DNA of 64,000 bases, taken from contig CM119265.1 of the NCBI GenBank assembly GCA_051294375.1, positions 9,370,772 to 9,434,771 of the forward strand, in the 5' to 3' direction. The first letter of the stretch is position 1. Each line of letters begins with the position of its first letter. Origin of the DNA: Paraspadella gotoi. Taxonomy: Eukaryota > Animalia > Chaetognatha. A program made the position numbers and the translations under genes. Below the pieces are notes generated by a model, which saw only the letters and a list, made by a program, of their open reading frames with translations, searched no databases and was not told the origin of the DNA. Of this stretch, positions 12,660 through 62,767 are shown piece by piece.

Positions 12660-15600
12660 ATGAAGACTCCCACGAAACCGGTGGCGTTGCCCGAACGACG
12701 CCGCCGGCTGAGTAGCCGTTCTGAGGCGCCTCAATCCGCCGTCGTCGTGACGCCGCGCCTGGAAGACGCCGAGACGCTTTTTCAGAAGTTGACCATCGCC
12801 GAGATTCAGGAGAAGCGGAAGGAGTTTTACGGAGGAATCGAGACGAAGCGGCAGGAGTTGAGGCTCTTGGTGGGGAAGAGGTGAGGATCTGGAAATTGCT
12901 CTTCTCGCCTTATGTTCAAATTTCAGGGCGAATAAGAAACTCATTTCAGAATTTGTTAAAATTGCATATGTAAAAATACATACCAGAAAAAACCCAAAAT
13001 TCTATCGCGTTTTAATTTTACTTTTAGATATGCTGGCCTCATCGAAGTCGCCGACGGCATCACGGAGATGAAATCCTGCGCCGAGAGCGTCACGTCTTCC
13101 GTTTCCGGTCTTCAACAGATTTGTCAACAATTAAAAAAGCAACAGAAGAGCGGCGCCGTTATTTCGCCAGCGGGCGACGCCTTGCCCGACAGGTAGAAAC
13201 GAGACTTGGAAATATCTGACGAAATCGCGTTCCTTTTCGTTTTACTTATCATTTATTTTTTTGACAGCCAGCGCGAGTTTTATTCAATCACGTCGCAGAT
13301 CAAGCTGCTCGTCACGGTGGCGCCCAAGATGTTCGCTCGTTTAGACGAGAAATCCTATTCGGACGCCGCCGTTCTCTTTTTGCTCGCCAAGCATTTGCAT
13401 CAGGGGCTGAGGCTGGACACTACTGCACACAACGCCACTGCGGTTTTGCCGTTTTTTCCCGGTGAGTATTGAGTACCGATTAGAATCCATTGTAATCTCG
13501 CTTCAATTGATGAATATGATTTCCTTAGTCATTTCCCGTCACTGGCCGGCCATCGCCCGATTTCGTCAGCTGATCGTGGCTTCGTCGCGGACTCAACTTT
13601 CGTCTCCGACGCTGACCGCCGATGCGGCCGTGGACGCCCTGTTGGCGCTTGTGGCTTTGGAGGGCGTTACAGTCCGTCAGGTCTTTGCCGACTTTCTCTT
13701 GGCCCGGACCGAAGCTCTGAATCAGGCAAGCCTAAGACAGCATCTTTCAATTCATGTCATATCCTAAATGTTGAATTGTTTCTTAGGTTTTAGGTTCATC
13801 TTCGGCGACTTTGAGCGTCAAGGATCAACTTCTCCAGGGAATTTCCATCCTCATTCTCTCGTTGAAGCTAGTCTTTGAAATATTCACTTCGCGCGAAAAT
13901 CAAGGTTCGAAATATTAAACTTCTCATTTTATGAATTTTGTTGCCAAGGAAGCGAGCTAAAAACTTAGTAACATTTCGGTCCGCCCCCCTCCATTCCCAA
14001 GAGCCTCGCGAAAACTCGCTCATTTCCCGCCTCGCCCTTCTGTCGTCGTCCACTTCCGCCGTCCTTCGCGCCGACGTCGTTTCCTGTTGCGGCTCCGTCG
14101 TCGCCTCCCATCTTCCCTCGTCGGCGCTGGAATTCAAACCGGCTCTTCGCGGCCAATCGACGCCGATGCCGGAGGAACAGATGCAGGACAGATGTAAAAA
14201 ATGGTTCGAGGTGAGGAAAAATACAATAGGCTATAATACTATGCCAAAGCCGGGTTGCCTGTGATCCCCATTGGGATGGGGCGTCTCACTGTTGGCTTTG
14301 GTGACTTTCAACCCTCAGTGACGCCACCTGTCACTGGCGCAGTTACCCAAGTCTAGGGCCTAGGACGGTCAACGCAGAGGGATTGGCTGAATGAAGCAGT
14401 ATGTAAGGCGGTGTGAATATACCGCCACAATACAATCAAATTAAAAAATGAACCCATTTTATTTTTCGCTGTACAAACGACAGTTCTCACTCTCAACCCT
14501 CCGATCGTCGCTCTCAACCCAATTGGCTTTTGTCTCTTCCGTTATGGGCCTTGCTCACATCCGGGATGTCGCCTTCGACGCTCTGACAGACTCGGATGTC
14601 GTCGGCGACTGGGACCGTGCATCCGAGGAGCTGCTTGGGCGTCGAGTCTGCGTCTGGCGGGAGGCGGTGCGACCACTGGTGGTGGTCAGGTTGGAGGAGT
14701 TGGTGCGAGATGGGATGAGGAATGTGGTTAAGGGGCTAGTGGATGGAATGAAAGTTGCCGGAGGTATGTGAGGATATTGTTTAAGAAATATTTATTATTC
14801 AGTTTTCTTAAACTTACTATTTTCCGTTTTAAAACGACCTACTAGCCACGCCATCTGACGACATTATCTCCTTCATGTGGAGCGAGTCATCAACCGACAT
14901 CCCACGCATCAATTTCGGCGACGGACAAAAGAAAGACGCTGGGGACGACGATGACGACGAATCTCAGCTAACGATGAAGACTAAAGGACGGACGTCCAAA
15001 GTGCAGCAGTTATGCCAGAAGGCGGACGCAGCGTTGAAGGAAGTGCTGCTCGACGCACAACACTTCGCCATCGTGAAGGCCAAAGGTCTTTTAATGAAGT
15101 TTTTGTTTTGTAATGTTTTGTTAAAATACTTTTCAACTCTGGTTTAGACGATGGAGCCACTTTCGACGTCGAAGAGGATGTCTCTCAAGCCTCTATCTTA
15201 ATTACTCGCTGCTGTCATGAAGTTTTTCAGGATCTCTTCTCCTTTCTGGACGAAGAATTGGCGCCTCCCGCACATTCCTCCTCTCGGCCTCATCCTCGTG
15301 CCGCTCGCCTCGTCTTCTTCGGCCGCATCTGCGAGGCTCTCTCCGATCAAGCGCCACACCTTTTTGCAGCTTTAGTGCCATCTGCAGCTTTGGTTGTCGA
15401 CTTACCCCAGCCATCCGTCGCCGATTCATCGCTTAAATCCTCCCTCCGTCGCTCTCTCCATTTCACCATGCGTTCTTCTTCGACGCTCTCTCGATCCAAT
15501 TCGATCGGGCCGGGCGCCCATCATCATAGCGACCAAACCCTCTTCGCCGACGTCAAGGAGGATCTGCTCAAGCGGTTCTGGCTGGCGTGGGAGGCGTGGC

Positions 15601-29220: not shown

Positions 29221-31837
29221 TCATCTTTTAGACTTTTTCCCAGCTTTCCCTCTGGCCTGTCCCTTCACAGCTTTTGACTTTGATTTGGAAGACTGTGATG
29301 AAAGGCCTACATTTCTTTTCATTTGATAGGTAGTTGCATTCTAGTCATCAAAACGTTAATTATGTTGCAGTTGTATAAGAAAGAAAAATCAATGTTTCTT
29401 TAAGTCGATAAGCATTAGTTCTGTACATATATTTTGAAATCGTAGCGTTACGTTACTTACCTCTAAGGAAAGCATGAATACGAAAAAAATAAGAGTTACG
29501 GCCAATTTTAATCATAAATACAGCTGGCATAAAATCCCTGACAAACCAATACTTACGTGCATCATTTAGTTTCATCCAAATCGGAGACAGCGTATCATCT
29601 AGTTGACTTTTCATGGTTATATATTCCATGGTAGATGCCTGAGGATTCTGTTCCAGCCAGCTTTCCTTTTCATTGCATGCTCCATTACAGTAAATCTGAA
29701 AATTTTTTCAAGTTGGTCTACTGTTGTCATTTTCACTAACATTGGTTTTCTCACCTTATCCTCTTTACTGAGCCTTCCTTGAACTTTTTCTGGATCTTGA
29801 AGGGTATCTCTCATATTTTTGATGCTGTCAACCAGGGCCTGCTTAGCCTCTGAGCCATATAATTGACATAAAAAGAATTGTCATTAGTTGTAATTTATTT
29901 ACAAATAAAAAAATTATCCTATACTATAGAAACTTCAAATTTAAATTTTGATCAACTTTTAATTTATGTTAATAATAAAAATACATCGCAGATTATATCA
30001 AAAACATAACATCTCATTTTTTAGGTTTCACATTCGCCGGTCCTTTTGTAGCTTGATTTTCTGTTAAAGTAAGAATTAATTTCTGTAAAATGTTTTCTTT
30101 GATTTGATGTTCTTCATACCTGCCCATTCTAAATATTCTGTGACTTCGTTTTGTTGGTATCGTATGGCTATCTCCCTCGGTCTCTCTCCGTGCGCCGTTC
30201 TCAGTTGCATGTCAGCGTTGCCTTCTACTAACAACTTTATGACGTCCAACTTGCCCCAGGCCGCGGCGTGGTGCATCGCGGTATAGCCTGATTTATTTAA
30301 AACCCCATAAAAATATCCATTTAATCCTGTTCAGTTTCCTTTAATTTTTAAATTAGTTATTTGTAATGTAATATAACTTTATATGCTAAATTAGGGTGAT
30401 TTACAGTATTATTTTTCTCGTTCGTTACATTTCCAGTGGAGATATCTCAGAATCACTTCACTGAAGAGACTTAAATTGTGCCCCATTTTGTATCCCACCG
30501 TCTAGCATTTCCGACGATATCAATTTTTACATAATTGTCTTTGTTATTAATTTCTCTGCCCCAATGAAGTCTTCGAATTTGTGAATCAACTAAGATTTCT
30601 TTACAGTTTACCTTATAATGTTTCACGAATTCACAATCAATTAAAATTTAGTTAAATTTTATTTTAAAAGTATAGTTATAGTTTTATATATAGTTTAAAT
30701 TTAAATTTTAGTTTAAGTTTAGTTAAAAAGTATAGCATGTAAAATGTAGCATTTTGTCTGCTCTAAAAAGTGGTATAGATTATATATTTGTTTAATGCTT
30801 AAGGTACTTTGTAACTTCTCAAACTAATAAGGAAAATATTTTTAAAACGTCTGTTGATTTTATAATTGTTTTTTAATTTGAAAGATTCACAGTTGATATA
30901 ATTCTTTAATATTTTTAATGAATGGCTATAACAAAATGGCTATAACAAAATCTTTTTTTCATGCTTTAAAACTTGTACAGGTTTTATTTTAATGCATTGA
31001 AACATAATATAACTAATCCCTAACTACATTTATAATTATCCCGATAAACCTTTTGTGACTGTCAGTGGTAATTAATTTAAGTAAATCGAATCGATAAAGA
31101 TTCAAATTTGACATTGTGGTGAATCCTAAATATGCCTCCCGTATAGCTTAGTGAAACTCAGCTTGGACAGCTCGTTCACCAACCGTGAGTTCCGGGTTCA
31201 ATCCCCTCACGGTCACACTGGTTAAAGTGTGATGGTGTCGTTATAAACACGCCAATGACATGGGGTGGTCATTGCAGATCCAAAGCATTTAATAAATAAG
31301 CTACCGTTCCCCTGACTTTGGAGGTTTAAGACCTATATTATACGTCATAGAAAATACCAAACAGAGACTTTCAAAACCGGCTAAACTCGAAAAAAATTAT
31401 GCTCTCCAATTATATTTACTTTTGTCCACTAAGTTTAAATATCTATTCCAAAGTATTAGAAATCTCAATTATATCACCATAAACAAAATGGTAACCATTT
31501 TTCTCTTCATTTCTCAACCTTTGGCAGAGGCGGCGTTGAGATTAACTTCTTTGGCGACGAGATACTCGACGATCTCCGTCCTTCCGAGGATCGCTGCCGT
31601 ATCGAGGGAACTTTTCCCATCCCACGGGTCGCGTGTCTCCAGCACCGACCGAAGCTCCTCCTCTGTCATTTCAGGTGGCGGGACTTCCGCAGCCGGGTCT
31701 TCGCCGAAAAGGTACTATCGCCAAAAAATATTGACATTTACCAGCATATGAAACTAAAACTAATACACCTTAGTAAGGCTAAGCCAAAGCCTAAATCACT
31801 CAATGAATAGGAATTTTATATTTTGTAAAAATAACAT

Positions 31838-31877
<40 letters not shown>

Positions 31878-33984
31878 ACATTATACATTAAGCTTATTTA
31901 TTAAATGAATGGATAATTTTTATATTGGTTGTACCAATTTCATTTATATTAGATATTGTGGCGGTATATTCAAACCGCCTCACATCCACCATCCTTCAGC
32001 CAAATCCATTGGCTCAGAGGGGGAACACACCATCCCAGGCGTAGTGTTCCATCCACAGTCCTAACGACTTCCCTCTGTGTTGGAAAAGCGAGACCGTCCT
32101 GGGGTTACCGCGCCAGTGACTGAGGGGGTCACTGAGGGTCGGAGGCCCCCAAGGCCAACAGTGAGATGCCCCATCCCAATGGGCATCACAGGCAACCTGG
32201 CTGTTGCCACAAGTGGTGAGCCCTACTTTCGAACACGCAACCTTCTCAGGGTACGTTACGACAAATGCCTATACCCTGCCGACTTCGGGTACGCTACGAC
32301 AAACGCTATGCCCCTGGGGTACGCTACGACAAACGCCTATGCCCCTACAACTCGCGCTCTCTCTCCCACTATGGTAACAGTCTTGTCAGACACCTCTCAG
32401 GCTTGAGGAACCTGAGTGATGTCTTGGCCCGGGGATCCTGTGGCGGTATATTCACACCGCCTCACGTCCACCATCCTTCAGCCAAATCCATTGGCTCAGA
32501 GGGGAACACACCATCCCAGGCGTAGTGTTCCATCCACAGTAGAGCGTTGAAAATAACAAAATATAACAAATCAAGTGAGTTACATAGCTATTTTAGTGTA
32601 ATGTAGTTTGTAGAATTCGATGGTGATGACCATTTTTTTATATAATTTTATCTTTCTTGTCGAAATGACGGTTTTTAATGTATATAAAATTGTTATAAAA
32701 TAGCAAAACCATTATAAGTTATGATAAATCAAATTATTAAAATTTTATAAATTTATATGAGCTTTTGAAATATAAAAATAAAGACTTATAAAATATTTGG
32801 TAAGTTTATTTCTAAATTTTATGTTTTATAAAAAGTTAGTTAACTATATTTATTAATAATTATGAGTAAAAATTAGGTTAAAGTTAAAAAATAATAATTT
32901 CAAAATTTTTCATGGATTTGCATTCTTTGCAAAAGTTGATATAAGAAAATATAATTTTTATATCAAAATTATGTCATTAAGTTAGTCAAAATTCAGAAAA
33001 CTATAATTTTAAGCCAAAAATTGAAAAATTAAACAAAATAATAGTTTTTAATATTTTTAACCTACTTAATGAAAGAATTTTTTAAAATAAATTATACTTT
33101 CTTATATCAATTTTTTGTAAGGAATTCAAATCCGGTTTTAAAATTTAATTTTTTTTATTTTTTCACTTTAGCTTATTTTTTATTATTATTTGTTATTATA
33201 TAAATATAGTACTAATGCAATAAGTCTATATCAAAATAACTAATTAATTAAATATTATAATATTTTGAAAATGTAAACTTAGCACAAATATTATATATTA
33301 TCTTTATTTTGAGTCTTTATTTTTATATTATGTAAGTTAAATATGGCTTTTATAAAATCTTAATAATTGAGTTTCTTATACTCTACAATGTTTGCTCCAT
33401 TTTAATAGCACTTTATATGCTGCAAAAATCGCATTTCCGACAAAGAAGATGAGACTATACCAAAAAATGGTTATCATCATCGAATCTACAGACTTTATTA
33501 CACTAAAATAGCTATATACCTCACTTGATTTGTTTTATTTCGTTATTTTTCAACGCCTAACGACTTCCCTCTGCGTTGGCAAAGCGAGACCGTCCTGGGG
33601 TAACCGCGCCAGTGACTGGAGGCGTCACTGAGGGTCGGAGGCCCCCAAGGCCAACAGTGAGATGCCCCATCCCAATGGGCATCACAGGCAACCTGGCTGT
33701 TGCCATAATATCTTTATAGTGAATCCAATATCATTTTAAAAATTAATATTATTTCAAATTTGTTGTTTTTAATTTGTAACCCTGACCAGTGACTAATCAT
33801 CACTTGTTTTATAGACCAAATAAAATATTGTTCAAGTTTTAAACTCTTTTCTGAAATTTCCTTCCAGTTGATGCACCTGAAGCTTGCTCAGTTCATTGTT
33901 GACGACGGCCTCGAGAACAAACTCGTGATCGACGGCGAATGCTGTACTTGCGCTTTCAGACACTGAAACCGAAACCTCGGACAT
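29221..33984 (-). CDS. Ankyrin repeat protein, ANKRD45-like, multi-exon
   Basis: Exon 1 33984-33877 (MSEVS...LSKLQ), exon 2 from 31714 (GKSSLDTAAILGRTEIVEYLV), exon 3 GYTAMHHAAAWGKLDVIKLLV...GERPREIAIRY, then DTLQDPEKVQGRLSKEDK; last exon uncertain (stop at 29221 or 28556). Confidence 0.72.
31134..31335 (+). mobile_element. SINE-like element: tRNA-like head, partial twister motif, and tail from another repeat family
   Basis: A-box-like TAGCTTAGTG at 31144, B-box GGTTCAATCC at 31195, then GTGT GA TGG...T^AA ACAC GC CAATGAC..GTCATTG CAGA TCCA AA GC. Confidence 0.65.
32541..33555. mobile_element. AT-rich foldback/MITE-like element with long imperfect terminal inverted repeats
   Basis: GCGTTGAAAATAACAAAATATAACAAATCAAGTGAG...GACCATTTTTT is mirrored by AAAAAATGGTT...CTCACTTGATTTGTTTTATTTCGTTATTTTTCAACGC (about 100 bp or more). 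Confidence 0.8.
33575..33655 (+). ncRNA. Twister ribozyme motif, type P5 (L4 variant TCGG-AG-GC)
   Basis: Same architecture with intact TAA cleavage site; its partner in the 5' LTR (32079-32159) has TAA changed to TTA. Confidence 0.65.
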
Positions 33985-34357
33985 TTTTCCCGCGGGGATT
34001 AATCTTCATCTGAAGATTCTATTTCGTTCATTTATTACAACTTTATTCTCATCGTCACTTTTAATTTCTATCCCATTTTGCATTAATTCTTGACCTCCAG
34101 CCGTATCTAAATTGCTTTGATTTTTATTGCTGGCGTCTCGTTTCCATGACAGTCCTGCTACCGAGGCCGTCAGTCGAATTCTTAGCTCAGCAGCTGCCGC
34201 TACTGAAACCGCAGAGCGTTAATGCTTTGTGCCGCCATCTACGTCGTCAGCTCCATTGCTTGACGTGTTGCACGTTTTTAAATTAACAACAAAAGATGAT
34301 TAAAGCCTCCTAATTTTTTTTATTCTTTTCTTATCCTGGCGCCAATCTGAACAGAAA

Positions 34358-35058
34358 ATGATTGACGTCACCGATTTACAAAGTAATTATATCCATTTTA
34401 CAATCAAATGCCGTGGTTTAAGTTGCTAATGGAACGTTTATTTTAGAAATTGGCATCGGTCTCACCGGCTTCGGCATCGCATTTCTGACGCTGGGTGTGC
34501 TTTTCCTCTTTGACAAGGGTCTTTTGGCGATCGGAAACGTATGTGAATAAGGGCGTTCATTAAGTTCAAGAAATGTTTTCGCTGGAGTCTGGACAATTTC
34601 AATTTGCCCGCAGATCCTTTTTCTCAGCGGAGTGGCCTTCATCATTGGGTTGGAAAGAACTTTCAGATTCTTCTTTCAAAGACACAAGTTAAAAGCTACG
34701 GGGTTTTTCATCGGTGGCATTTTCACGGTGCTGTTAGGTTGGCCCATGGTCGGAATGATCGTCGAATTGTATGGATTCTATCATCTTTTCAGGTAAACTA
34801 AATAATATATATAAAATAAATGATCGCATGAAATAATACTAAGTAACTAACAAAATGTTTCTAGTGGGTTTTTTCCCGTTGTCATTAATTTCCTACGTCG
34901 CCTTCCCGTCGTTGGTCTCCTACTGAATCTCCCTGGAATTAGCGTGGTAAGCTTCTTACAATCAATCTTGCACAATTTGCTAAATGTTAACAAGGTTCTA
35001 CTTTGCTTGATTCCAGGTGGCCGACAAACTCAGTAACGATTCTCGATCGATGGTGTGA
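34358..35058 (+). CDS. GOLT1B: Golgi transport protein Got1/GOLT1, five exons
   Basis: MIDVTDLQKIGIGLTGFGIAFLTLGVLFLFDKGLLAIGN, FFQRHKLKATGFFIGG, SGFFPVVINFLRRLPVVG, ends SRSMV-stop. Confidence 0.92.
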
Positions 35059-35485
35059 ATTTCGTCCATATTGCGTCATTTTCGTCATGCATCTTTTTTA
35101 TCATCGTTGAACAGTCGTATTTATCGTTTAAAAACCTCCCTCATGTTGTACGTCTAAAAAATTGACGCCGTTTTGCTGTAAATAAATTAAATTTTATTTC
35201 ACAGATGAATGTACAGAAAATTTATTTAAAATGAACTTGCCAAAAACGATCAAAATAAATTGTTACTAGGTCGAATCAAGTTGTAAAATGTATTAGACTC
35301 GTTCATTGCACCTACAAGAGATTATCTCTGTAGACTAGGTGAAGGCATAAATTTATTCGGATGTATGTAAATGGAGGGTCAGTCGCCAAATGACTTGAAA
35401 AGAAAAAGGAACTTCTGATGCGCAGCAAGAAAGTGAGAACATTGAACACGCACAATTTCTAGGGAATAAAGAAATCTTGGGCAGA

Positions 35486-38400
35486 TCACAATTCGTCGTC
35501 TGGGTCGTGAGTCTTTTTCGCTTCGTCTCCGCTTGGCTCCCCAGTACTCGAGGGTTCCGTCGGAGGCTGTTCCGCCGGAGGAGGCTCGGATGTTGGCTCC
35601 CCCGATGAAGGCGAATCGGGGGAGGGCGCCTCTGGAGCCTCGGGAGACTGTCGATCGGCGGCAGGAGCCTCGGTCGCCTCGTCCTTTCCAGTTCCCTCTT
35701 CGGATACCGGCGATTCGGTCGGGGGAATGACTTTCTCTTCATTCTTCTTCGCCTCTTCTTCCTTCGCGGGTTCCTTTTTCGGTTTGGGCTTGTGGAACTT
35801 GGCTTTGTTGATGAGATATTTGATCTCTCGGTCCAGCGCCGCCAGCTTGGCCTCGACTTCAGACACGGTAAAAGCCGGCTTCTCGAAGTCTTTCTTCGTT
35901 TTCTGTTTCTCGACAACGACGTCCATCCAAGTTTGGGTCTCCACGTTAAGCTTGGCGAGAGTGTCGAGTTCGACCTCGGTGAAAATCGGATCGTCCGGAG
36001 TAGAATCGCTCAGGTTCTTGCTCATGACTAATATGAGATAAAGGTCAATTGTCGTTTAAGAAATTAAGAGAATGAGCCTTAGTTGTCGCTTCCCTTTATA
36101 CTCACCGTAAAAGTTGTGAGACGTGTTCAGGTGGCTGACAAGCGACTCAATGGCTTTGGGGCGGTTTTCTTTTTCGTTTAGTCGACCAAAGAACTCGGCG
36201 AATTCTTTCTTCAGCTCAGAAAGTTTATCCTTATAAGTTTTGGTTGGGACCTCGGGCCCTTGGTCGAACAACCAGTCGTCGGCCTTATTGAGGGAAGCCA
36301 GGAACGTCTCCCGCTCTTCTTCTAAAAATTTTAATTGAAAAATATTAATTTTTTTTTAAATATAAAAAAAAGCGGCGAAGTCGTTACCCGTCGCGCAAGA
36401 AGCCGTCTCATCCAAGTTCATCTTGTCCTTTGCGTCGTAAATAAAACCCTCGAGTGCGTTTTGAGCCGCCTCGCGCGCCACTCTCTCCGCGTCGGCGTCG
36501 TCCATCCTTTTGAGCGTCTCCCGAGCGAGCTTTAACTCATCAACCGTCATTTCCCTGGTGTCCTCGTAATGAAGCTCGGACGATATAGGTTCCTTTATCG
36601 TAACCAACTTCGGCACCACTTTTTTCGGCTTTTCCTCTTTCGCTTTATCTTTTTTCTCGTCTTTTTCTGTCTTGTTAGCGCCTTCCTTCACTTTTTCTTC
36701 TTTCTTTTGGTCTTTCGCTTCTTCTTTATTTTCTTCCTCTTTTTTGATTTCCGGATTTTCTTCTTTCGTTTTTTCCCCTTTTTGGTTTTCTTGACCACTT
36801 TTAGTTTGTGCTTGACCAGTTTCCTCCTTCGTCGTTTCCTTCTCATTTTCTTTCTTTTCATCATCTTTTCCCTGTTGCTCCTCTTCCTCTTTCTTTTCGC
36901 CAAACATGTTGGAGAAAGCGTCTTTGATCTGGTCAAGCGTTGAAGGTGACGCCTCCGACGCGGCTTCTTCCTCTTTAATCGTCTTCTCGAACAAAGACTC
37001 CACTTTCTCCAGCTGAAGAATTCCACTTTCGTCCATGCGAAAATGAGCTTTCACTCCTGGAAAAATATTTTTCTTTTGCCAATTTTTTAAACATTCATGA
37101 GTAAATATTTGCAAACAGTAAATAGATAAACAAAATTAAACTAATCCCTTTTATACCTTTCGCCTCGACGTCTTCACCACTGTGTTTATCTAAAGCCTTG
37201 TCAACGCCCGCAAGCGCGACCGTCTTTAACTCCCTCCCTCCGAACATGGCCTGATGTTCACCGTCGAGGAACGAGACGTCTCCATAATTTACGCGGACTC
37301 CGAAATCCTTTCGGTGTTTAGGAAAAGTGAGAACTTTGCGTTGCGGGTATGGGTTGTTTCGCGTGAAAAGCACGCGTTTAACTATCTTTCCCGGGGCTTC
37401 AGTGGAATCGGGCGCCGACTCGGACGGAGCGGCCAAGGCGCGTTCGAATTCAACCTAATTTAAATGCTTGAAAATTAAAGTCTTTTCCCGCCCTAGCCTT
37501 CGGTCCCACCCGACCCTTTACCTCGATAGGATAAACGTTAGAGTCTTTGACCAAAAATTTTTTAACTCTAAATCCTTTGCTTAAATGAGCGGCCTGATAA
37601 ACGGCACCCATGGCAGCGGACTCGTCCGTGTTTAAACTCATTCCTAGTTGATCGTGCCCCTTCGCAACCTCGAGGACGTTTTCGCGAACTTTAGGTATGC
37701 GCGTCCCGCCACCGAAGAGAAGAACTTGACTAACGGGGAAAAATAAAAGTTGAGCCGAACAAAATGACTTATTGCATAAGGTATGCGGGAAATAATTTGT
37801 TTTTTCTTTACTTTATCTCTCCCCACGTCATCTCCGATGATTTCATGGCCTCCTCCACCGGCTTCGCGACTCGGGCGAGCAAATCCTGGCACATGCCAAG
37901 AAATTCGTCTCTCGTGACTTTTTGGCGAAAATCTTTTTCCTCTAAAAGTCCCTCGATCTGAGCGTAAGCTTCCTTGTTTGCGCTGAGGATGAGCTTGACT
38001 CTTTCCGCTTCCTTGAGCAGTTTGCTCATTGCCTTTGAATTGGCCGTCACGTCTTGCTTGACTAGCTTCTTCTCGTTGAAAGCCTGGGAGAAGCGAAAAA
38101 GTTTACGGCACGTTTTAGACTAATGGAGTCAATTGCACGAAAAAGTGAGCGACCTTGGCCAAATGATTTCTGAGCCTGAGAGTAAATTCGAGTCCGCCCA
38201 GCGTTCGATCGAAGCCGACGGATTTAATCGTGACTTGAGGATTCGTTTCCGCGAATCCGTTTTCCTTCGTCTGCACCAATTGATAACTGGCGATGGAGGC
38301 GACGGTTGATCGCGCCCCCATGTCGAAGATGAGAAAGTTTTGCGCCGTCGCGTTGAATTCTTTACGTCTGGGAGTGAAAGCGGTTTTTGAAACGAGGAAC

Positions 38401-39595
38401 ATTCAGAACTCGAAGTTGAAAGAAAAAAAATCACTGCAAAGCAACCTGAACTTCACAAATCACTAAAAACATAACTCACCCCTGCCCAAGAAAACTGAAA
38501 AGAAAATAGAACTCGATCTAGATTAGGTCCTGATTGAGTACTATTATGGCAACGGGAGGATAGCCTGTGATACCCGGGGCGCGGGGTATCTCACTAACTG
38601 GCGTAGGGGCTGCGGACCCTCAGTGACCGCCTCCTGTCACTGGCATGTTTATACCGGCACCGTCACATTTAAGCCAGAACCGGGATACCCAGGGATTGAA
38701 CCCGGGACGCACGGATGGAATGAGATGATTTAGCCTGCTCAGCCATTGAGACGAGGCTGAGGACGGACAGCAGTGAGGCAGCTTTAAGTCTTGCTGCCAC
38801 ACTATTCGAATATTATCGACACGTCTCACCTGAAGACGCCATAATTGAGCGCGACGGCGGCGTCGTCGGTCATGAGTTGCAAGAGTTTAATTCCTGCCAA
38901 ATCGCAAGCGGCAGCGACGGCGCGCCTTTCGGCTTGGGAAAAGTAGGCGGGGACGGTGACGACGGCGCCGGCGATGGGCTGCTCCGCGAAGTTTGACGCC
39001 GTATCTTGAGCCTTGTTCAGAATCATCGCCAGAAGCTCCTCGGGACTTAACAAAAAAAGTTTGTCATGGTTCCCATGCATCTTTCAAAAAAAAAAGCCAC
39101 CATAATGAATACCTGAAATCTTCATTGTCGCTTTTCTTTAAAGTAACAGTGCCTCGCCCTTTCTTCTCGCCAAGGGCGATGTGAGGATAGGTCCTACGGT
39201 AATTGTCTACGAGGGGATGGTCCAACGTCTTGGCCAGGAGATCGTTGAGAAACCGAAACGCAGTCGGCGGTCTTTTCATCGAAGCTAAGAATAGAAAAGA
39301 ATAGGAATTTTGTGATTATTTGAATAATTTCGTGCAACAGATTGGTTTCTCTGAGCTCACCCGCCAAAGCGGCGTCCCCGAAGGATCGCTCCCCATCTTT
39401 GAACGCCACGATGTTGGCAGTTTTACGTCGGCCCTCTTTGTTGAGCGCGATTTCCATGGGAACGCCCGGCTTGACGATGGCGATTTTGAGGAACTCGCTT
39501 CCCAAGTCTACCGACATAACGGCCAAGGGCGACACTACCGTCGCCCAGTTACACAGCAAGAGTGATACCGTCGCCGCGAACCAACACCCCCGCAT
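35486..39595 (-). CDS. HYOU1: Hypoxia up-regulated protein 1 (GRP170, ER Hsp70-family nucleotide exchange factor), multi-exon
   Basis: Signal peptide then AVMSVDLGSEFLKIAIVKPGVPMEIALNKE, VTVPAYFSQAERRA, ALNYGVFR, DRTLGG, acidic/Lys-rich insert, C-terminal DDEL ER-retrieval signal. Confidence 0.95.
38545..38801 (-). mobile_element. Solo LTR of a divergent sister family
   Basis: Termini TGTGGC...GTTGCCATA, 257 bp, TSD CTAT on both sides, same series of hairpins with compensatory changes; in a HYOU1 intron. Confidence 0.88.
38598..38677 (-). ncRNA. Twister ribozyme motif, type P5 (divergent family; P2-P5, T1 and T2 fully paired, P1 minimal)
   Basis: CTGGC TTAA ATGT GA CGG TGCCGGTA T^AA ACAT GC CAGTGAC..GTCACTG AGGG TCCG CA GC CCCT AC GCCAG. 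Confidence 0.87.
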
Positions 39596-39878
39596 TTTGG
39601 TTATAGTTCACAATGTAGGCGAGAGACGATTCGAGATCTTATATCATAAGCGCAACCGGATTCTAAAGAGTACACGTGTTTTTTATCGAAACTCAGAATA
39701 AAAGAAAAATAATTGTATCTCCGAATACTATCCGGTTAATCCCTCGAAAGAAAATGGTATTGAGTTAGTCGACGTGTCTTTGGCAACGCGAACGGAAATA
39801 CGAACAAGTGGGATTCGTAGGGAAAGCCGGCGACGCGAGGAGCGACGTAATGGAGAGAACGTGCAAACAGCTGTGACT

Positions 39879-39897
39879 CGTGGAGGATGACGATTGG
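39879..39897 (-). promoter_or_regulatory. ER stress response element (ERSE) upstream of HYOU1
   Basis: Minus strand reads CCAAT-CGTCATCCT-CCACG, an exact CCAAT-N9-CCACG match, 284 bp upstream of the HYOU1 ATG. Confidence 0.75.
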
Positions 39898-40441
39898 TCC
39901 AAGTCATCTCTCCCGGCCGCGCCAAAGCTGCCACCCCAGCAGCCTACCGCCCCCGCAGCACCGCGGCACCGCTTCCTCTCCCGCCGCCGCTGCAGATGCT
40001 CTTTTCTTTTTCTCCCGTTAATTTATGCAGCCTCGTTGTCGAAAGCAGATGGCGCCTTAAGTTTGTGCTAAAGCCATTGCTGTTTGTTAAAAATTTCGTC
40101 GTGAATGATTTTTTTATGTTATTGTGTTTATTTAATAAATTTCTTTGGTCTTAAAAGAAGGATAATGCTGCAATCATTGTAATTAAGTAAATGACCTTAA
40201 CATTTTTTTATTTTTGTCTCGTAACTCGTCCACATTGCTAAGACATTGCACAATTTTGCATATTTGCAAAGAAATGTCTACTGTATTCGGTTATGCGCTA
40301 GTTTTTGTCAAACATTCAATGAGTTTCACTTTATAGGGTTCGATACTGGATATCTTCACCTTAATCCTTTGAAATATTTCTTAAAGTATTTGCTCTTCGT
40401 TTTTTAGCGACAAAGATGTGACTCTCAAGGTCTCTCAGCCT

Positions 40442-43400
40442 ATGGGGGCCAGATTCACTCTTGAAAGCCTCGATCTACGGAATTCTTCATCCCTCGTTCC
40501 CTCTTTCGACGAGGTCACCTTCCATAGACTTTCTCCGGCTCACCTGGTGCCGCCTTTGTTCTCAGGGACCGCGACCGCGACCGACTCTCGCGATGTTTCG
40601 CCGGACGTTGATTCCCCGATAACGTCAACGACAACGGCCTCTTCCAGCGCGCCTTCATTCTACGACCTCTGTCGACAGATTTTGGCGATCGTCCAACAGG
40701 TCGCCGCTCGTTTGCCGCTCGACGCGACGACTCCGTCGAGGGAGTCGACGACGATGTCCGGGCGGCCCGACGGCCAACCCGCGAGAGACGAGGAAGACGC
40801 CTTCGACGACGATATAGCTGACGCGGACGCCGTAGCGGGAAGCGACTCCGCAGCCGGAGCTGCAGAAAACGAGCAGCGTCGAGAATCGGACTCTGACTCG
40901 AGTCAGGTCGACCTCGCCAGAATCCTCCGCTTCCTCCTTCGCACCGGTCAAGTCAGATTCATGGCCGGTCAACCTTGGATCGATGGCACCAGCAGAGTAG
41001 GTGAGTACTTTCTTCTTTAATTAATATACTAATATTGTACAAGGTGACACACGAAAACCCGCCCCAAGGAAAAAATCGTCATTTGCAAAGCTGTTAATAT
41101 TTTTTTAATCTGAAATATTTTTTCTTTAGTAAAAACCAAAATCATTTATATATTCAAATTTCATATTGAGTGGTTATGATTTGACTTAGCAATGAGCGGG
41201 AAAAAATTGCTTTAAAGTCGTCTTTGATTTAAAAATTTGTTTTTTTATTTTTATTTTTTTCAATTTTTTTATTTAATTTCCTGAACATTTTTTAAAAAAC
41301 TTTTTTTAAGGCTCTTGGAAATTTGAAGAAAATTACATATTTAAGAATATTGTAAATGAAAATAAGTTTAACCACCTTTAGTTAAATAAAGTTTATCAAA
41401 AAATTTTCACAAGTTTGAAAATGATAATTTTTTTCTAGCGGCGGGTTGTCGTGTGTCACCTTGTAAAGACCTGATTAATACCAGTACCTCCACAACTTCA
41501 ACCTGATTGTCTCTGTCTTATGATATTAGTTAAAGTACAGGGACTTCAATCTGGAGCGTTACAAAAAGAATTGATTAAACTCGTAATTCTTTCACAGTAT
41601 ACTATTTTTATAACATTTTTTAGTTAATGAAAATTTTATTTTCAATAGATTTTAAAAGGAACATTTAATGATTATTAAGTATTATTAATGTTATAAAATA
41701 TTTTTGTTATTCTTTTGTGATACATGCATACGGTATATTCACACCGCCTCACATCCACCATCGTTTAACCAATCCCATTGGCTCAGAGGGGGAACGCACC
41801 ATCCCAGGCTTTGCGATCCATCCACAGTCCTAACGACTTCCCTCTGCGTTGGCAAAGCGAGACCGTCCTAGGGTAACCGCGCCAGTTACAGAAGGCGTCA
41901 CTGAGGGTCGGAAGCCAACAGTGAGATGCCCCATCCCAATGGGCATCACAGGCAACCCGGCTGTTGCCATAGTAACAGATTGAAGTCCCTGTATGTAATT
42001 TTACTTTCGCCGACCGGGGTTAGTGTGGTGAAGGGTTAATGGTGGTTTAGGGATAGTTTAGGGTTAAGAGGGGTTAGGATAATTAGGTAATATTTTTTTT
42101 AATAAATATTTTTAAATAGTTTTTTAAAAGACGCCAAAACCACGGTCGGCGAAAGTAAAATTTTGCCGAAACGGCTCCTTTCATGCGCAGAATTCCAAAT
42201 GATCACTAGCAAGAGAGACGATGAGGTGTAAGTCAATATCTTGTTTGTCAGGGAAGAAAAAGAGCTTCGATGAATTCGATTTATTTTACAGAAAAATGGC
42301 GGTCGAATAGAATTACTGAATTATTTTTCATGCCCCTTAAATTGATGCGAATCAGTTAGTCACGGAGACCTTATCAATCTGAAAAACTTTTTTGAAACTT
42401 ATTGATTGGCAGACATGAATTACGAAGAGGGCATCGGATACGGCGACGATGATGACGATTCTGATTACGTCGCGTCCGACGACGCCAATGATTCCGACTC
42501 GGACGACAATCGCGTCGTTCATCAGCCTGAGCCTGACCCCGCCCCGGATCTGCAACGTTTACAATCCTCGGATCTCATGCAGGTTTTCGCCTTGGATTTT
42601 CTCTCCTGAACTTTTAATCCTACCAATTAATTCAATTGTTTTCCCATTCTAGGAAATCCTTCAAAATTCTGGCCGAGGTCCCCTCTCCAACATCTCCACT
42701 TGCTGCATCCCGAAGCCGAGCCTCCGCTGTCTCGCCGGCAACTACCTCGTTTCCACGCGCACCATGTCGGCGGCCAATTCGGCCCAAGACATTCCCCGTC
42801 AGTCTTCTTCGACCGATCTTGCCTTCGATCCGAGCGACGCCGCCGAGGGTGATGCCTCCGGCACCCGGGCCGTCGGGTGCGTGCCCACGTGCTTCGGACG
42901 CTTCCGAAAGCGAGCGCAGGCCGCCAAGCGGGAAGAGGAAGAAGCGGAAAGATCGAAGAGAGAATTAGCCTTGAAAAGACAAGGCCTGCAAGGAAGGTAT
43001 GAATCACGTCTCAGGCTCGTTGGCGAAGGGAGTTTTCTCAAAACATGTTTATTGCAATTTCTTTTCACTCAGCGTGGGCTTTCGGAATCGTCCATTCCCT
43101 GTTGTGTTGCGGGATCGCGAGCTTGGTCTCCGTGGGGCTCGATGCAAGACGTCGCGCGGCATTTGGATGCTGGGCGATTGCAGTGCCATCTCCTCCATGT
43201 TTTTGCCCAACAAACCTTCGAGGGTTGCCGAGTTTGGGCGGTAAGTTTGATATTTATACGTTGTATTTTGACTTTCTTTTTGCTAATTAAAATAGTTTAG
43301 AGATGAAACGAAAAATTCGTTGGAATAGCACTTGCTGATGAAGACTCGTACCACTAAGAGACGAAACATGTACAATATTAAAAATAAATTGCTATTCCAA

Positions 43401-46105: not shown

Positions 46106-49100
46106 ATGTATCGTCCCTCGCCCCATGAAGTCGTTGGGTTCCCGCCACCTCCTTGCCGTCCGTCCAGCATTCCCGCGTCCCGCCTCGCCTTTCCGGCTCG
46201 CCCCGGGTTCCGCGCGGGGCGTAAAAAGGTCCCATACGTGGCCCCGCCCCGGGCAATGGGACGCGAGAGCGAAGGAGAGTGGGTAAACGTTCGCGGCGAC
46301 GCCGACATCGGCGCTGATGGCGGCGGCAGAGCGGAAGAAACGGCGGTGAAAGAGATGGAGCCGACTAAGGACGCCGCCGTGGAGTTTGTGAAGAGCATGG
46401 AAAAGTGCCTGAAGGTATTTTTCCTGCGGTTTGTATCGTAATTAAGTTTTTTTTTATCTCGCCAGACGGGCTTAAAAGTGTGATATCATCGGAAGCTAAA
46501 AATTTAGATATGGCTTCTCATCATCGAGATCTTTGAAATGGTCATGTTCCATATCAATACTCGGATTTGTTTGTTTTATTTACAAAACAATACTACAAAT
46601 TACATTTTGTTTCTCTCTTTTTCTCCGTCGCTGTTTCTTATTCGTCTAAAAACGAGGTCAGCTCTGCAGCGGCTGGAGTTCTCTCTCTCATTCATACACG
46701 CATTTGTTTGTTTTATTTACAATGAATGACTATCATCGCGTCAATGAATGACTATCATCGCGTCAATGAATGACTATCATCGCGTCAATGAATGACTATC
46801 ATCGCGTCAATGAATGACTATCATCGCGTCAATGAATGACTATCATCACGTCAATGAATGACTATCATCGCGTCAATGAATGACTATCATCGCATCAGTG
46901 AATGAACTATCATTGAATAAATAATTGGTTATCATCTTGTCAATAATCAATTATTATTACATTAATAATCTATTATTATTACATTAATAATCTATTATTA
47001 TTACATTAATAATCTATTATTATTACATTAATAATCTATTACTATTACATTAATAATCTATTACTATTACATTAATAATCTATTACTATTACATCAATCA
47101 TTCGTTTTTTTTTCCGGATTTTTTAATTTTTTTTCTTTGATAGTAGCGAGATCAATATATTTTTGAGATTTGTTTTTATTTTGATTTTGCTTCCACTTCA
47201 AAGGATTTCTACGTCTTCTTCGGCGAAAGCGATTCGGAAGAGTCGGACTTCTCGGGATTCGACGACGAAGAAGTTGATCGTTCAGAGAGAGACGCCGACG
47301 ACTCCTACGTCAAAACCCTCGACGACGTCACCGTCGAAATCGATAAGCAGCGACGCGGCGAACTTGATGAAGACGAACACTATGAAGAATCTCCATCCGA
47401 GCTGCCCAAAGGCGACCGCGTCCAAAAGAACGCTTCTCGGTCCCACGATCACATACCACGCACGCTCGGTCGTGACACTTCCGTTCGTTCCTCCAAACAA
47501 TCCAAGTTCTCGAAGCGACCTTCTCCAGCCCTCATATCGACAACCTCGACCAAGCGGCGTTGCTCCGATCGTCACGCTTGTCTCGACGAGCAGTCGGCAT
47601 CTTCCGACAGTCGTCGCTCGGATCGGCTCGCGGGGGCCACGCCCGTCGCAGATAGAGACGACGCGCCGACTTCAAGAAAGAAAAGGGTTTCCGGAGCAAA
47701 TACGATGCTGGACGCTAAAATGTCTCCAACCGCTCGGACTGATTTTCCGCCGACGACGCCAGTCGCTCCCTTCCGCGGCCGATTGAAGAGCAGAACGACT
47801 TCCGTTTCTAGTGACTCGGCGCCGGATTCCTCGGAGGCCACCCCCGCTCGCACCGGCGACTCCGCCGCGTCCACCGAAAGCCCGGCGCCGCTTTCTTCCC
47901 CGGGCACGCCGCTTATTGTTAGCGGAAAGCGGGAGAGAAAACCCTCGATGAAGATAAAGATGATCGCTGCCGACCACACCGGACGAGCTGCTGGAGAGAA
48001 GATGAAGAAGTTAGGAAAGATGAACGAGTGCCACGGCTCAGGTGGTCATAAAGCGATGACCAATGGGTTTAAGAAATTGTCAACCGAAGAATCAATTTTT
48101 AAGCCCGCTGGGAAAAGACCAAAGATGGAGCCTGTTGACGAGAATACGCTTTTAGGCGTGGCTGAATCTGCTGGACCTCTGCCGCAAACAGCTGAAGACC
48201 CTTCCGAAATGTCCGACGTTCTCGATTCAATCAATGACCTAAGTAGCAAATTCTCGGAAGTCGTCGTTGGCAGACTGAAGAGCGTTTTGGCCGCCAATGC
48301 TTACCCCAACGCGTCGGAACGAGCCGATTTAGCGGCGGAGTTGGGCTTGCAGCCTAAGCAGGTTCGAAAACGGAAATTTCTGAAATCTCGAGACAAGGAA
48401 GAAACGAGTTTGTCTTATAGTGTTGCAAATTACTTATTTCAGGTCAAAAATTGGTTCGAACGTCAACGCAAGAAACTAAAGAAAATATCCCCAGATTTGG
48501 TTCTGGCCAGTTCCCCCCAACCTCACAAGCCAAAAAGCGAGCGACGCCCCTCCATGTCTCCGCCCTTGAAAGCCTCGACGACCGACTCCAATGATTTTCC
48601 GGACGACGACGACGACGCGTTAGGCGAGTTGAAAATCGATCTCGACGCTCTGCCCGACGAAGAGGGCGTGGACGAAACTTATCAATCTCTCTTGAAACTC
48701 CCATCCCGCCCGCCTCCTTCGCCCGTCGGCCTCTCTGACAATCGAATACTTCCAAGTGCCTCCGCCTCGTCCCCGGCCGTCGTCAAGAAGAAAAGGGGCG
48801 AGTTGTTCCCGCGTCCCGCGTTGATAAAACTGTGGGAGATGCTTATTCGTCACAAGGATCATCCTTTCCCTTCGCTCGAAGAAAAACAGCGCGTGGCCAA
48901 AGAGGCGGGGCTTGCCCTCAATCAAGTCTCCAAGTGGGTATTCTTCGCGCGGCAGAGAAAATATCTCCAGATGCACGACAGGATCGAAGGCTTGGAGAAT
49001 TTTATAGAAAAGAAATATTTCAGGTAGGTTTTTGAAAACGCGAGAAAGTCTTCGACAGAACCATATATCAAGGCTCAAGTTAGTTCCTTTAACCCCGGAA

Positions 49101-52100: not shown

Positions 52101-54766
52101 AGCTCCGCCTCTCCCGCGTCACCAACCTTCCTCCACGCCGAATTCTCCGATGGTTCCAGGAGGCGCGCGCCAAAAAGTGGGCCCGGAAGTTGAGATTGAC
52201 GCTGAAAGATGGAGTCGTCGTCGCCGCGGAAGAAGACGGTGGCGTCGGTGACAAGACGGCGACGAAAAAGAAACGCGACGATGTGGACGAAGCGATCGAA
52301 GACGCCATTTCTCTCATTCCGACGTTGCGTACGGCCGTCGCTAAACTAACGCCCAAATCTCCCGACGTAAGCAGTGACGCGGGTGGCGTGACCGCCGACG
52401 ATGTGCTTGAAGAAGACCTCGACCTCAGCTCGTCTTCCTGTTCGTCGAATCGCTCCAACGATGCCTTAGATAAGAACGACCTAGCGATGTTGCAAAACGG
52501 ATCTCTGACTGGAGCGTTGAGGACCGCGATGCGGACCAACGGAGATCACGGCGGCGTCGGCGGCGAAGGTGGCGAAGCGGAAGATGAAGAGTTTGTGGAG
52601 GAGGCTGACGATGACAACGACGACGCCTTCGAAACCGATTCGCCTTCCCTTTATCCGCCGCCAGAATATTTTCACTCCGTCGTCCCTCAGACGGACGGCA
52701 TCACAGAGGATCAGCTTGTCCGTCTCTCGATGATGCTCTTTAACCACAGGGGAGAGGCCTTCCCTGATCCATCCGCGAAGGAGTTGGAGGAGGCGTCGGC
52801 GGAGACAGGATTGAAAGAGGAGTTCGTGAGAGACTGGTTCGAGAAGTGTGTCTCTGACGGCATTCACGCCAACATGGAGAGGTGAGGAAGGAAGATAGAA
52901 ATTCAATAGAGATGAGTCTTGAAATGTTGAGAAAATAATGAAACTAATTCTATTGTTTTCCTTTGTTTTGTTTTTCAGCGTCAGTAATAAAAATTTGCGA
53001 CTTCCACCTCGCGATTTGGACCGCAACTCAAACCGAACGGCGCCCTTGCCAGTGGTGCCACATCGTCGTGCTCGTTACCCCGTCCATGTCACCAACGCCC
53101 TTAAAACATTTCTGCTCGAGCGACGAGTGCTTTTCCCCACGGCGGCAGACCTCCTCGCCCTCACGTCGACCACGGGACTGTCGACGAAGCGATTGCGAAA
53201 CTGGTTTGGACAGGCGCGAAGCAAGCATCTCCTACACCAGCTCATCGCCGAGAAATGGAAACCAGAAGACGACGATGGAGGCGAGGGGATCGCCGGAGGG
53301 AAAGATCTCAGTTTTGTCGACGACGGTGGCGACAGCATCGGCGGTAACGGCGATGATGCTCCCTTTTCTCCCAGCTCCGTCGACGACAAAACTACGAGCC
53401 GGTCAAAACGGGTCATCAAGCCGGCAAAGCGCTTCATCGAAGAGCACGAAGCTATGCTGTCCAGCGCCAAAGCGAAGCGGCGCGATTCGACGCCTTCCTT
53501 TGTGACGGAGGAGACGGGCACCAACAACAACGACAAAGAGACGAGGTTGACGCTGGAAGAGATTCAGGAGAGGGTGCTTAATTTGCCCAATTCGTTGCAA
53601 GGTAGGTTAATACATCGTAGTATGGCAACAGCCGGGTTGCCTGTGATGCCCATTGGGATGGGGCATCTCACTGTTGGCTCTGGGGGCTTCCGACCCTCAG
53701 TGACGCCTCCAGTCACTGGCGCGGTTACCCTAGGACGGTCTCGCTTTGCCAACGCAGAGGGAAGTCGTTAGGACTGTGGATGGAACACTACGCCTGGGAT
53801 GGTGTGTTCCCCCTCTGAGCCAATGGATTTGGCTGACGGATGGTGGACGTGAGGCGGTGTGAATATACCACCACAGGATCCCCGGGCCAAGACATCACTC
53901 AGGTTCCTCAAGCCTGAGAGGTGTCTGACAAAACTGTTACCATAGTGGGAGAGAGAGAGAGAGCGCGAGTTGTGGGGGCATAGGCGTTTGTCGTAGCGTA
54001 CCCCAGGGGCATAGGCGTTTGTCGTAGCGTACCCAAAGTCGGCAGGGCATAGGCGTTTGTCGTAGCGTACCCTGAGAAGGTTGCGTGTTCGATAGTAGGG
54101 CTCACCACTTATGGCAACAGCCGGGTTGCCTGTGATGCCCATTGGGATGGGGCATCTCACTGTTGGCTTTGGGGGCTTCCGACCCTCAGTGACGCCTCCA
54201 GTCACTGGCGCGGTTACCCTAGGACGGTCTCGCTTTGCCAACGCAGAGGGAAGTCGTTAGGACTGTGGATGGAACACTACGCCTGGGATGGTGTGTTCCC
54301 CTCTGAGCCAATGGATTTGGCTGACGGATGGTGGACGTGAGGCGGTGTGAATATACCGCCACAGTAGCCAAATTTAATGCTGTTAACGTGGTGTATGTTA
54401 AGGTTGTTAAAACTTACCTTTTTTAAAATTTTCTTTCGTTATTTTTCTTTCTTTCATCTTTGTTTCGTCCTTATTTTTTAATCGGATCAGCTTATCAGCA
54501 CATCCCGACTCTATAATTCACTTTGTCGGTCCGCCCCCTCAATCTTGTCGGGCATTCACTTATATCATGTCAGAACATCGAATTATGATAAATTATCTGT
54601 AATTCCATTCAGAAAAACAAATTTTTGATTTTCACAATGAATTTATTTAATTATGAGCAGACATCTTTCGAACATTGTTCTGTTCTTCATCAGTGCAATA
54701 TTTCAGTTTGAATTACAAAATTTTGGTAAGTTAAAAGTGAGAGAGGAAGAGGGAGACAGAGAGTGA

Positions 54767-62505: not shown

Positions 62506-62767
62506 TGTGACAGTACATTCACACCGCCTCACGACCATAATCGTTCAGCCAATCCCATTGGCTCAGAGGGGGAACACACCATCCCAGGCGTAGTGTTCTC
62601 TCCGCAGTTCTAACGACTTCCTTCTGCGTTGGCAAAGCGAGACCGTCCTAGGGTAACTGCGTCGGCGACTGGAGACGTCATTGAGGGTCGGAACTTGGAA
62701 GCCCCCAAAGCCACCATTGATATGACCCATCCCAATGGGCATCACAGGCAACCCTACTGTTACCATA
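62506..62767 (+). mobile_element. Diverged solo LTR of the TRIM family
   Basis: TGTGACAG...TACCATA, homologous along its length; imperfect TSD GCAT/CCAT. Confidence 0.85.

Follow-up and report, generated by a model that had tools for sequence, protein, structure and literature searches.

The window analysed here, a stretch of 64,000 nt from the chaetognath Paraspadella gotoi, is animal DNA in which the introns are short. It includes part of a myosin XVIII, which is 42-47% identical to its three best named animal matches. On the reverse strand lies a gene of the Hsp70 family. When the exons flanking its intron at 38368-38829 were joined, they gave an open frame that matches Pfam HSP70, the best match being Hsp105; the gene is presumably the orthologue of HYOU1. 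The intron carries a small LTR in the sense orientation, and the ribozyme cut predicted for this LTR falls 179 nt past the 5' splice site. The preliminary description had read the insertion as a solo LTR with the target-site duplication (TSD) CTAT, and we agree: the duplication is perfect over 4 bp, and all the motifs quoted there were found in place. Since the TSD is exact and the motifs are intact, the data suggest a fairly young insertion from a separate active lineage (lineage B) and not a decayed copy of lineage A, the most abundant one in the window.

Elsewhere in the window we noted a tRNA-Gly(TCC) gene (56276-56347, reverse strand), two neighbouring 22-nt tandem arrays (46720-47134), and a second dispersed AT-rich repeat family, unrelated to the LTRs (24047-24216, 31891-31943, 49382-49572 and 50342-50670). 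Several homeobox-like ORFs are clustered at 47147-53620 (forward strand), recognised by eye except for the last one (52923-53620), which matches Homeobox_KN with an E-value of 1.6e-4, below the cut-off. A full element of lineage A is inserted antisense to this last ORF, a few codons ahead of its apparent stop (52923-53620 / 54364-54375), the frame being extended into the LTR by the insertion.

Table. Positions of the LTR family and its parts in the window
Feature	Positions	Strand	Remarks
Solo LTR, lineage B	38545..38801	-	257 nt, TG...TA ends
TSD CTAT	38541..38544	+	3' side of lineage-B LTR
TSD CTAT	38802..38805	+	5' side of lineage-B LTR
5' hairpin H1	38777..38798	-	two compensated pairs relative to lineage A
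Hairpin H2	38738..38761	-	its 3' arm is the A box
tRNA-type Pol III A box	38734..38745	-	TGGCTGAGCAGG
tRNA-type Pol III B box	38692..38702	-	GGTTCAATCCC, in a T-arm-like hairpin, 43 nt past the A box
Predicted type-P5 twister ribozyme	38598..38677	-	
P5	38677-38673/38602-38598	-	
P2	38668-38665/38648-38645	-	
GA	38664-38663	-	
T1	38662-38660/38615-38613	-	
P1 hairpin	38659-38652	-	2 bp
U^AA	38651-38649	-	
T2	38644-38643/38610-38609	-	
P3	38642-38621	-	
P4	38620-38617/38608-38605	-	
Predicted cleavage site U^A	38650..38651	-	from the twister consensus
3' hairpin H3	38569..38590	-	one compensated pair
Terminal hairpin H4	38548..38565	-	one mismatch in the lineage-B copy
Host intron, Hsp70-family gene	38368..38829	-	GT..AG, 462 nt; contains the lineage-B LTR
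Full lineage-A element	53621..54363	-	743 nt, TSD CTAC
PBS-like sequence	54098..54107	-	TGGTGAGCCC, 2 nt past the 5' LTR of the full lineage-A element
Second full lineage-A element	31957..33707	+	TSD ATAT, PBS 32214-32223
Lineage-C LTR	31115..31286	+	3'-truncated; A box 31144, B box 31195-31205
Decayed lineage-A solo LTR	41726..41971	+	
Decayed lineage-A solo LTR	62506..62767	+	
Decayed lineage-A solo LTR	14240..14429	-	with a deletion; TSD GTAT

Using BLAST and a covariance model, we identified nine related cores in the window, seven of lineage A, one of lineage B and one of a third lineage, C. The family had been called old and diversified, and the second term is borne out by at least three lineages within the window; these three lineages from one window are the evidence base of this study. 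The lineage-B LTR is identical to the lineage-A copy at 54110-54363 in 160 of 261 columns (61%). Full-element anatomy (two LTRs and an internal part) was seen in lineage A, lineage B being a solo LTR. The element at 53621-54363 consists of an LTR (54363-54110), a 234-nt non-coding internal part and a second LTR (53875-53621); the two LTRs differ at 3 of 255 positions, and no ORF was found in the element. Both LTRs have the predicted ribozyme at the matching place, with cuts expected after 54216 and 53727, 489 nt apart. The sequence TGGTGAGCCC stands two bases past the 5' LTR in both full copies, and agrees at 9 of 10 positions with the tRNA-Trp PBS given for the bee in the Helenus supplement. 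The polypurine tract is poor, consisting of GGGGA alone, 3 nt ahead of the 3' LTR. At 53950-54090 (reverse strand), the internal part also has three imperfect repeats of the type GGGTACGCTACGAC, along with a short stretch of (CT)n.

In the second full copy, the 5' ribozyme reads UUA instead of UAA and is likely dead, and an insert of 1015 nt (32541-33555) interrupts the 3' LTR. This insert is AT-rich and MITE-like, with long terminal inverted repeats. Across the family, the 4-bp TSD is exact at four of seven loci, retains three of four bases at one, and could not be assigned in two damaged copies. The TSDs ATAG, CTAC, GTAT and ATAT and the one-sided CCAT and ACAT, from six copies, have a pyrimidine followed by A in the middle, hinting at a possible N-Y-A-N target preference. 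No autonomous partner element was found within the window.

The twister topology was taken from the Rfam consensus. Read 5' to 3', lineage B has P5 (5 bp), P2', GA, T1', a 2-bp P1 hairpin, U^AA, P2, GC, a 7-bp P3, P4, U-CCG-CA-GC, P4' and P5'; judged from the sequence, this predicted fold is the Rfam twister-P1 consensus opened at P5, that is, the type-P5 permutation. The U^AA loop, with the general-acid A, and the GA ahead of T1, with the general-base G, are the same in lineages A, B and C. The cut proposed earlier, between 38651 and 38650, is correctly placed within U^AA. The catalytic GA, U^AA and GC/GC had been described as invariant; this applies among intact copies, but not to the damaged ones, with UUA in the 31957 copy, GG in the 14240 copy and an altered T2 in the 62506 and 14240 copies. 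P2 and P4 of lineage B have four of four pairs each, lineage C being truncated before P4 can be scored. T1 (3 bp) and T2 (GC/GC), with the L4 loop U-NNN-NA-GC, are 100% paired in all six rows of the core alignment described below. P1, two base pairs closed by a tetraloop, retains its pairing in all three lineages, and P5, in which the ends lie, has 5 bp in lineage B and 6 bp in lineage A, with one compensated pair. Natural type-P1 twisters are reported to tolerate flaws in P1, P2 and P4, with P1 dispensable, but not flaws in the pseudoknots or catalytic bases (10.1101/2024.07.11.603121); as far as these could be mapped, lineage B appears free of any flaw of the harmful kind. We regard 38598-38677 as a putative type-P5 twister with every catalytic feature, for which cleavage is predicted.

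A strict twister descriptor matched the window at three places (38651, 53727 and 54216), and with P4 left free also at 31244 and 41874. By chance, the strict descriptor matched in none of 100 block shuffles of the window (0.04 with P4 free) and none of 20,000 shuffles of the lineage-B LTR. At gathering level, Rfam gave the tRNA-Gly alone over the window and no twister. Rfam scans at E-value level of 31500-42500, the LTR and the full element gave no significant twister match, and none across the whole LTR; the partial twister-P1 matches scored 13.6 bits (E 1.7) and 15.2 bits (E 4.5), for a twister-P1 threshold of 67.2, and no twister-P5 match was listed. Computed without pseudoknot terms, the nested twister fold has -19.5 kcal/mol, 6.5 above the minimum of -26.0. 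The lineage-B LTR folds no better than its shuffles (z -1.07), and lineage A has a z of -3.06.

The preliminary description held that paired positions change together. We scored 53 proposed pairs, of which 50 are standard in the lineage-A copy at 54110-54363. Thirteen of these 50 are changed in lineage B, nine on both sides (eight still paired) and four on one side (two still paired). The eight compensated pairs are distributed over P2 (two), T1, P1 and P5 (one each), the 5' hairpin (two) and the 3' hairpin (one), and the T1 change between lineages A and B, C-G to G-C, takes two transversions. A null model in which 22 substitutions were placed at random (200,000 simulations, three transition rates) gave on average 1.0-1.9 double compensations (P <= 1e-5), against the observed 8 of 13 changed pairs compensated on both sides. 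Pairing was kept in 10 of the 13 changed pairs but not throughout, being lost in the outer pair of P5, one pair of H2 and one of the terminal hairpin. Three pairs mismatched in lineage A are all paired in lineage B. For P2, the double changes behind CCGC/GCGA to ACAT/ATGT are real, but lineage-A P2 consists of three pairs and a C.A mismatch; likewise P5 retains its pairing with one compensated pair, but its register is shifted by one base and the outer pair is broken.

Lineage C extends this pattern. T1 is CCG/CGG in lineage A, CGG/CCG in lineage B and UGG/CCA in lineage C, giving the pairings C-G/C-G, C-G/G-C and U-A/G-C. P2, P1 and P3 likewise covary in lineage C, whose core has GUGU/ACAC in P2 and A-U for G-C in P3, with a cut predicted after 31244. 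As a control, six decayed lineage-A copies have 26 one-sided changes (six still paired) and two two-sided changes (neither paired), so compensation is 0 of 28 in the decayed copies versus 8 of 13 in lineage B (Fisher P=1.3e-5). We also built a six-row alignment of the core, leaving out the three most decayed cores and, because its register shifts, P5. In this alignment 93.8% of the cells are paired, and 6 of 22 pairs show a both-sided change, two of them in T1; none of 500 shuffles reached six such pairs, and slid controls were 28-44% paired. The same alignment was not above its shuffles in further pair types (304 of 500). All these covariation P values are optimistic, because related rows were compared and the sequences were known when the helices were selected; the contrast with the decayed copies is independent of helix choice. 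Selection on the RNA structure, as claimed in the preliminary description, appears the best reading, because the double changes fall in the crossing T1 and the long-range P5 and P2, outside DNA hairpin repair, because neutral decay gives no compensation, and because lineage C and the X11 contig, which stems from a different sample (below), agree.

Upstream of the twister, tRNA-type A and B boxes stand in lineages B and C, with a spacing of 43 and 51 nt, respectively; published consensus forms are TRGCY..YGG for the A box and GGTTC for the Helenus B box (PMC10886601). The A+B pair occurs in the window only in these two lineages, in none of 100 shuffles of the window and in 3 of 20,000 shuffles of the lineage-B LTR. 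Within the window, B boxes occur only in lineage B, lineage C and the real tRNA-Gly. Neither these boxes nor lineage C, nor the link to Helenus and retrozymes, figured in the preliminary description. In lineage A, the A box is at the same place, followed 34 nt on by a weak, degenerate B box. ARAGORN called no tRNA in the LTR. No LTR of the family has a T4 run; this would fit Pol III read-through, although such an absence is not improbable on its own. The full copy has one T4 run in its internal part, at 53932; it is private to that copy, since all contigs of three sequencing runs read C there and the second full copy lacks it.

We searched for the element in other samples. The full element was found in part in 13 of 15 runs among the matches listed, from six studies, none of them recorded as RNA; the comparison of contigs covered four runs. 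The 645 contigs of run X9 carry 28 different flanks at one LTR end and 21 at another, and the family therefore occupies many loci. Depth in X9, a sum over contigs and not a measure of expression, was 10,000-90,000 on the element and ~80 and <1 on the flanks. One X9 contig joins two LTR starts head to head on opposite strands (53876 / 54363), which is either a genomic pair or a library artefact.

Run X11, from a biofilm, gave one 506-nt contig that passes from the internal part through one LTR and back into the internal part, a circular path. The contig has 23 differences, 14 in LTR positions 1-109 and nine in the internal part, and none in the 139 positions that comprise the ribozyme stems, the core and the 3' end (P=6e-6), loop L3 alone being replaced. 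Within LTR positions 1-109, the stems are not significantly spared (3/38 vs 11/71, P=0.37). In the 5' hairpin, X11 and lineage B have one double change in common, G-C to A-U, with a G.U intermediate in run X13, and the A and B boxes of X11 are unaltered although adjacent loop bases differ. The circular path is ambiguous: an RNA circle would give it, but so would a one-LTR DNA circle or a low-coverage assembly in which two LTRs had collapsed.

With its two LTRs, tRNA-type boxes, tRNA-Trp-like PBS, 4-bp TSD and no ORF, the element is a Pol III TRIM of the Helenus type, and it probably functions as a twister-bearing LTR retrozyme. Helenus/TRIMp3 elements (PMC10886601) share a size below 1 kb, A and B boxes in the LTR, a 4-bp TSD (in animals), a PBS for a tRNA 3' end and, by inference, a Gypsy helper, and the 743 nt of the full lineage-A element fall within the Helenus size range of ~0.3-1.3 kb. 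In the available text of that paper, "twister" and "self-cleav" do not occur and "ribozyme" occurs once, in a reference title, and the accessible supplement has no shared P3 motif. In most animal Helenus LTRs, the B box is followed within ~20-70 nt by the LTR end, often preceded by a T run, and a ribozyme would not fit (PMC10886601 supplement). Helenus-2_SyJa and Helenus-2_SyUm, from Synergus gall wasps, resemble our element in having the boxes in the 5' half, a long 3' part, a tRNA-Trp PBS and a 4-bp TSD; by eye, after the boxes their LTRs (277 nt; PMC10886601 Data S1) have GUC, a 7-bp helix I and CUGAUGA. These LTRs continue with helix II, GAAAC and helix III, and there is an 11-base match between loop I and loop II, again by eye. 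On these core motifs, we take this to be an apparent type-III hammerhead. It is unmentioned in the available text of PMC10886601. That another ribozyme occupies the corresponding place in elements sharing the primer and the TSD length is, beyond our own data, the strongest hint that self-cleavage is needed there.

Plant LTR retrozymes (PMC4918200, PMC7761336, PMC9695139) share with the element the non-coding LTR-internal-LTR layout, one ribozyme per LTR, a 4-bp TSD, a PBS, solo LTRs, a GC content of ~58% and, by inference, a Gypsy-type helper. They differ in carrying a type-III hammerhead and a tRNA-Met PBS, whereas our element has an animal host, a twister, a tRNA-Trp-like PBS, A and B boxes in the LTR, a smaller size (LTR 255, unit 489 nt) and a weak polypurine tract. 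Owing to the twister, the animal host and the Trp-like PBS, we call the element retrozyme-like in its working and not a member of that class as defined. The putative ribozyme shares with type-P5 twisters (PMC5408937; Rfam clan CL00120) the UAA loop, P2, P3, P4, the U-NNN-NA-GC loop, GA, both pseudoknots and the ends in P5; it differs in having a 2-bp tetraloop hairpin for P1, a T1 that departs from the usual GGG/CCC, and a score below Rfam gathering. The twister T-variants of Perere-3 RTE (PMC8501958) also process the RNA of an animal retroelement, but Perere-3 is a coding non-LTR element without PBS or LTR, with a single type-P1 motif at its 5' end. Animal non-LTR retrozymes (PMC7229834; 10.64898/2026.07.22.740005) are likewise small non-coding retroelements with ribozyme repeats, processed into RtcB circles, but they have tandem type-I hammerheads, are Penelope-derived and lack LTRs, a PBS and a 4-bp TSD. 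A Penelope-like pseudo-LTR or non-LTR retrozyme was ruled out by the TG ends, PBS, 4-bp TSDs and dispersed copies.

LTR retrozymes have been described in plants, with type-III hammerheads (PMC7761336, PMC9695139, PMC11722881, PMC6765202), and are said to occur "primarily" there (10.64898/2026.07.22.740005); unpublished insect elements with type-III hammerheads are mentioned in PMC7761336, and twisters are known from viroid-like circles and RNA viruses (10.1101/2022.07.19.500677, PMC13725137). In the literature covered, which was mostly open-access, we found no LTR element with a twister and no animal LTR retrozyme; an earlier notice is possible. The element thus joins four lines of work, on plant hammerhead LTR retrozymes, animal non-LTR retrozymes, RTE twisters and ribozyme-free Helenus; it would give the twister a role in an LTR element and suggests that one class of ribozyme can replace another in the LTR. 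It may belong to an unrecognised group, and we give about even odds to the existence of animal LTR retrozymes that are Pol III-driven, Gypsy-dependent and tRNA-Trp-primed, with a fixed ribozyme slot and small circular RNAs. If so, the slot past the tRNA-derived promoter could be filled by different ribozymes, a type-P5 twister here and a type-III hammerhead in gall wasps. Because Rfam misses natural variants like these, in which P1 has 2 bp and T1 occurs in three pairings, such elements may hide in many invertebrate genomes.

Our main reading, which we hold at roughly 60%, is that the element is a non-coding LTR retroelement transcribed by Pol III, cut by a twister in each LTR and circularised, with a Gypsy-type partner that reverse-transcribes and integrates it. 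From the anatomy, boxes, fold and covariation we infer as likely the further steps of transcription, cleavage, circle formation and replication. Pol III would start just upstream of the A box in the 5' LTR and, because there is no T4 terminator inside the element, would read through into the flank. In lineage A, twister cuts after 54216 and 53727 would then release a 489-nt unit without an R repeat, which an RtcB-type tRNA ligase may close into a circle, by analogy with retrozymes. Such a circle would be 58% paired (z -2.0), below the >70% given for retrozymes. A tRNA-Trp could prime at the PBS, copying round the circle would rebuild both LTRs, and a Gypsy integrase that makes 4-bp TSDs would insert full or solo copies. 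The plant retrozyme model also has no R region, circularisation letting reverse transcription rebuild both LTRs (PMC4918200). In animals, RtcB closes retrozyme RNA into circles, and circles also form from tandem twisters in mammalian cells (PMC7229834); Gypsy elements of the CsRn1 clade, with a tRNA-Trp PBS and a 4-bp TSD (PMC2582038), offer a lead to the partner. The scheme would answer how a Pol III TRIM without terminator or R region sets its RNA ends. The engineered circular-RNA system with tandem twisters uses a Pol III promoter, and the element, if the scheme is right, would be its natural counterpart. The lineage-B solo copy would make no circle alone, but its intact ribozyme would cut the intron of the host pre-mRNA, and this Hsp70-family intron is a natural case in which to see if splicing suffers when an intron is cleaved.

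The main rival, which we consider rather unlikely, keeps an active twister that makes the 3' end of a linear RNA, no circle being needed: the copy in the 3' LTR alone would cut well, the Pol III start in the 5' LTR would survive, and the ~100 nt between start and cut would serve as the R repeat for strand transfer. Cassandra does use a short R made by Pol III (PMC10886601), competing folds could gate the twister by context, and our LTR lacks T4, whereas most published animal Helenus LTRs stop soon after the B box, often at a T run. Yet both LTRs have an identical, self-contained 80-nt motif, the primary transcript of a plant retrozyme is reported to have been fully cut at the 5' LTR (PMC9695139), and the circular X11 contig, if RNA, also speaks for the circle. 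Less probable still is a real ribozyme in an element driven by Pol II or host read-through, its tRNA-like part being a relic or a structural module. Copies inserted within an intron and at the end of an ORF, the at least 21 upstream flanks in X9, and the weak B box and short A-B spacing of lineage A would fit such transcription, but lineages B and C keep good boxes at tRNA spacing despite strong divergence elsewhere, and in X11 the boxes stayed unaltered where adjacent loop bases changed. We find it very improbable that the motif is non-cleaving and that the paired changes come from DNA inverted-repeat repair or from selection for hairpins in ssDNA or packaging. In favour of that reading, H1, H3 and P3 are short-loop hairpins open to repair, the helices were selected after both sequences had been seen, and the Rfam scores are weak. 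Against it, T1 is a 3-bp crossing helix of arms 45 nt apart with two different double changes, the G.U pairs fit the predicted RNA strand, the unpaired catalytic bases are retained, and decayed copies of the same genome show no such repair (0/28).

Beyond the element itself, a covariance model built from six window copies recovered the nine known cores and nothing else below E 0.4. Relatives were absent from the viral contigs (0 and 0) and prokaryote genomes (0) searched. A P3-L4 pattern drawn from the three lineages led to 13 metagenome loci, none of which is the same element and 12 of which lack the upstream core as judged by script; matches of the covariance model in these loci are circular, because the same pattern had picked them. 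Rfam was run on one of the 13 (L005), and gave twister-P1 with 54 bits (E 3.4e-11). This motif (679-746, reverse strand) is a type-P1 twister below the Rfam gathering score, lies on an AT-rich contig, and has P3 arms identical to those of lineage C.
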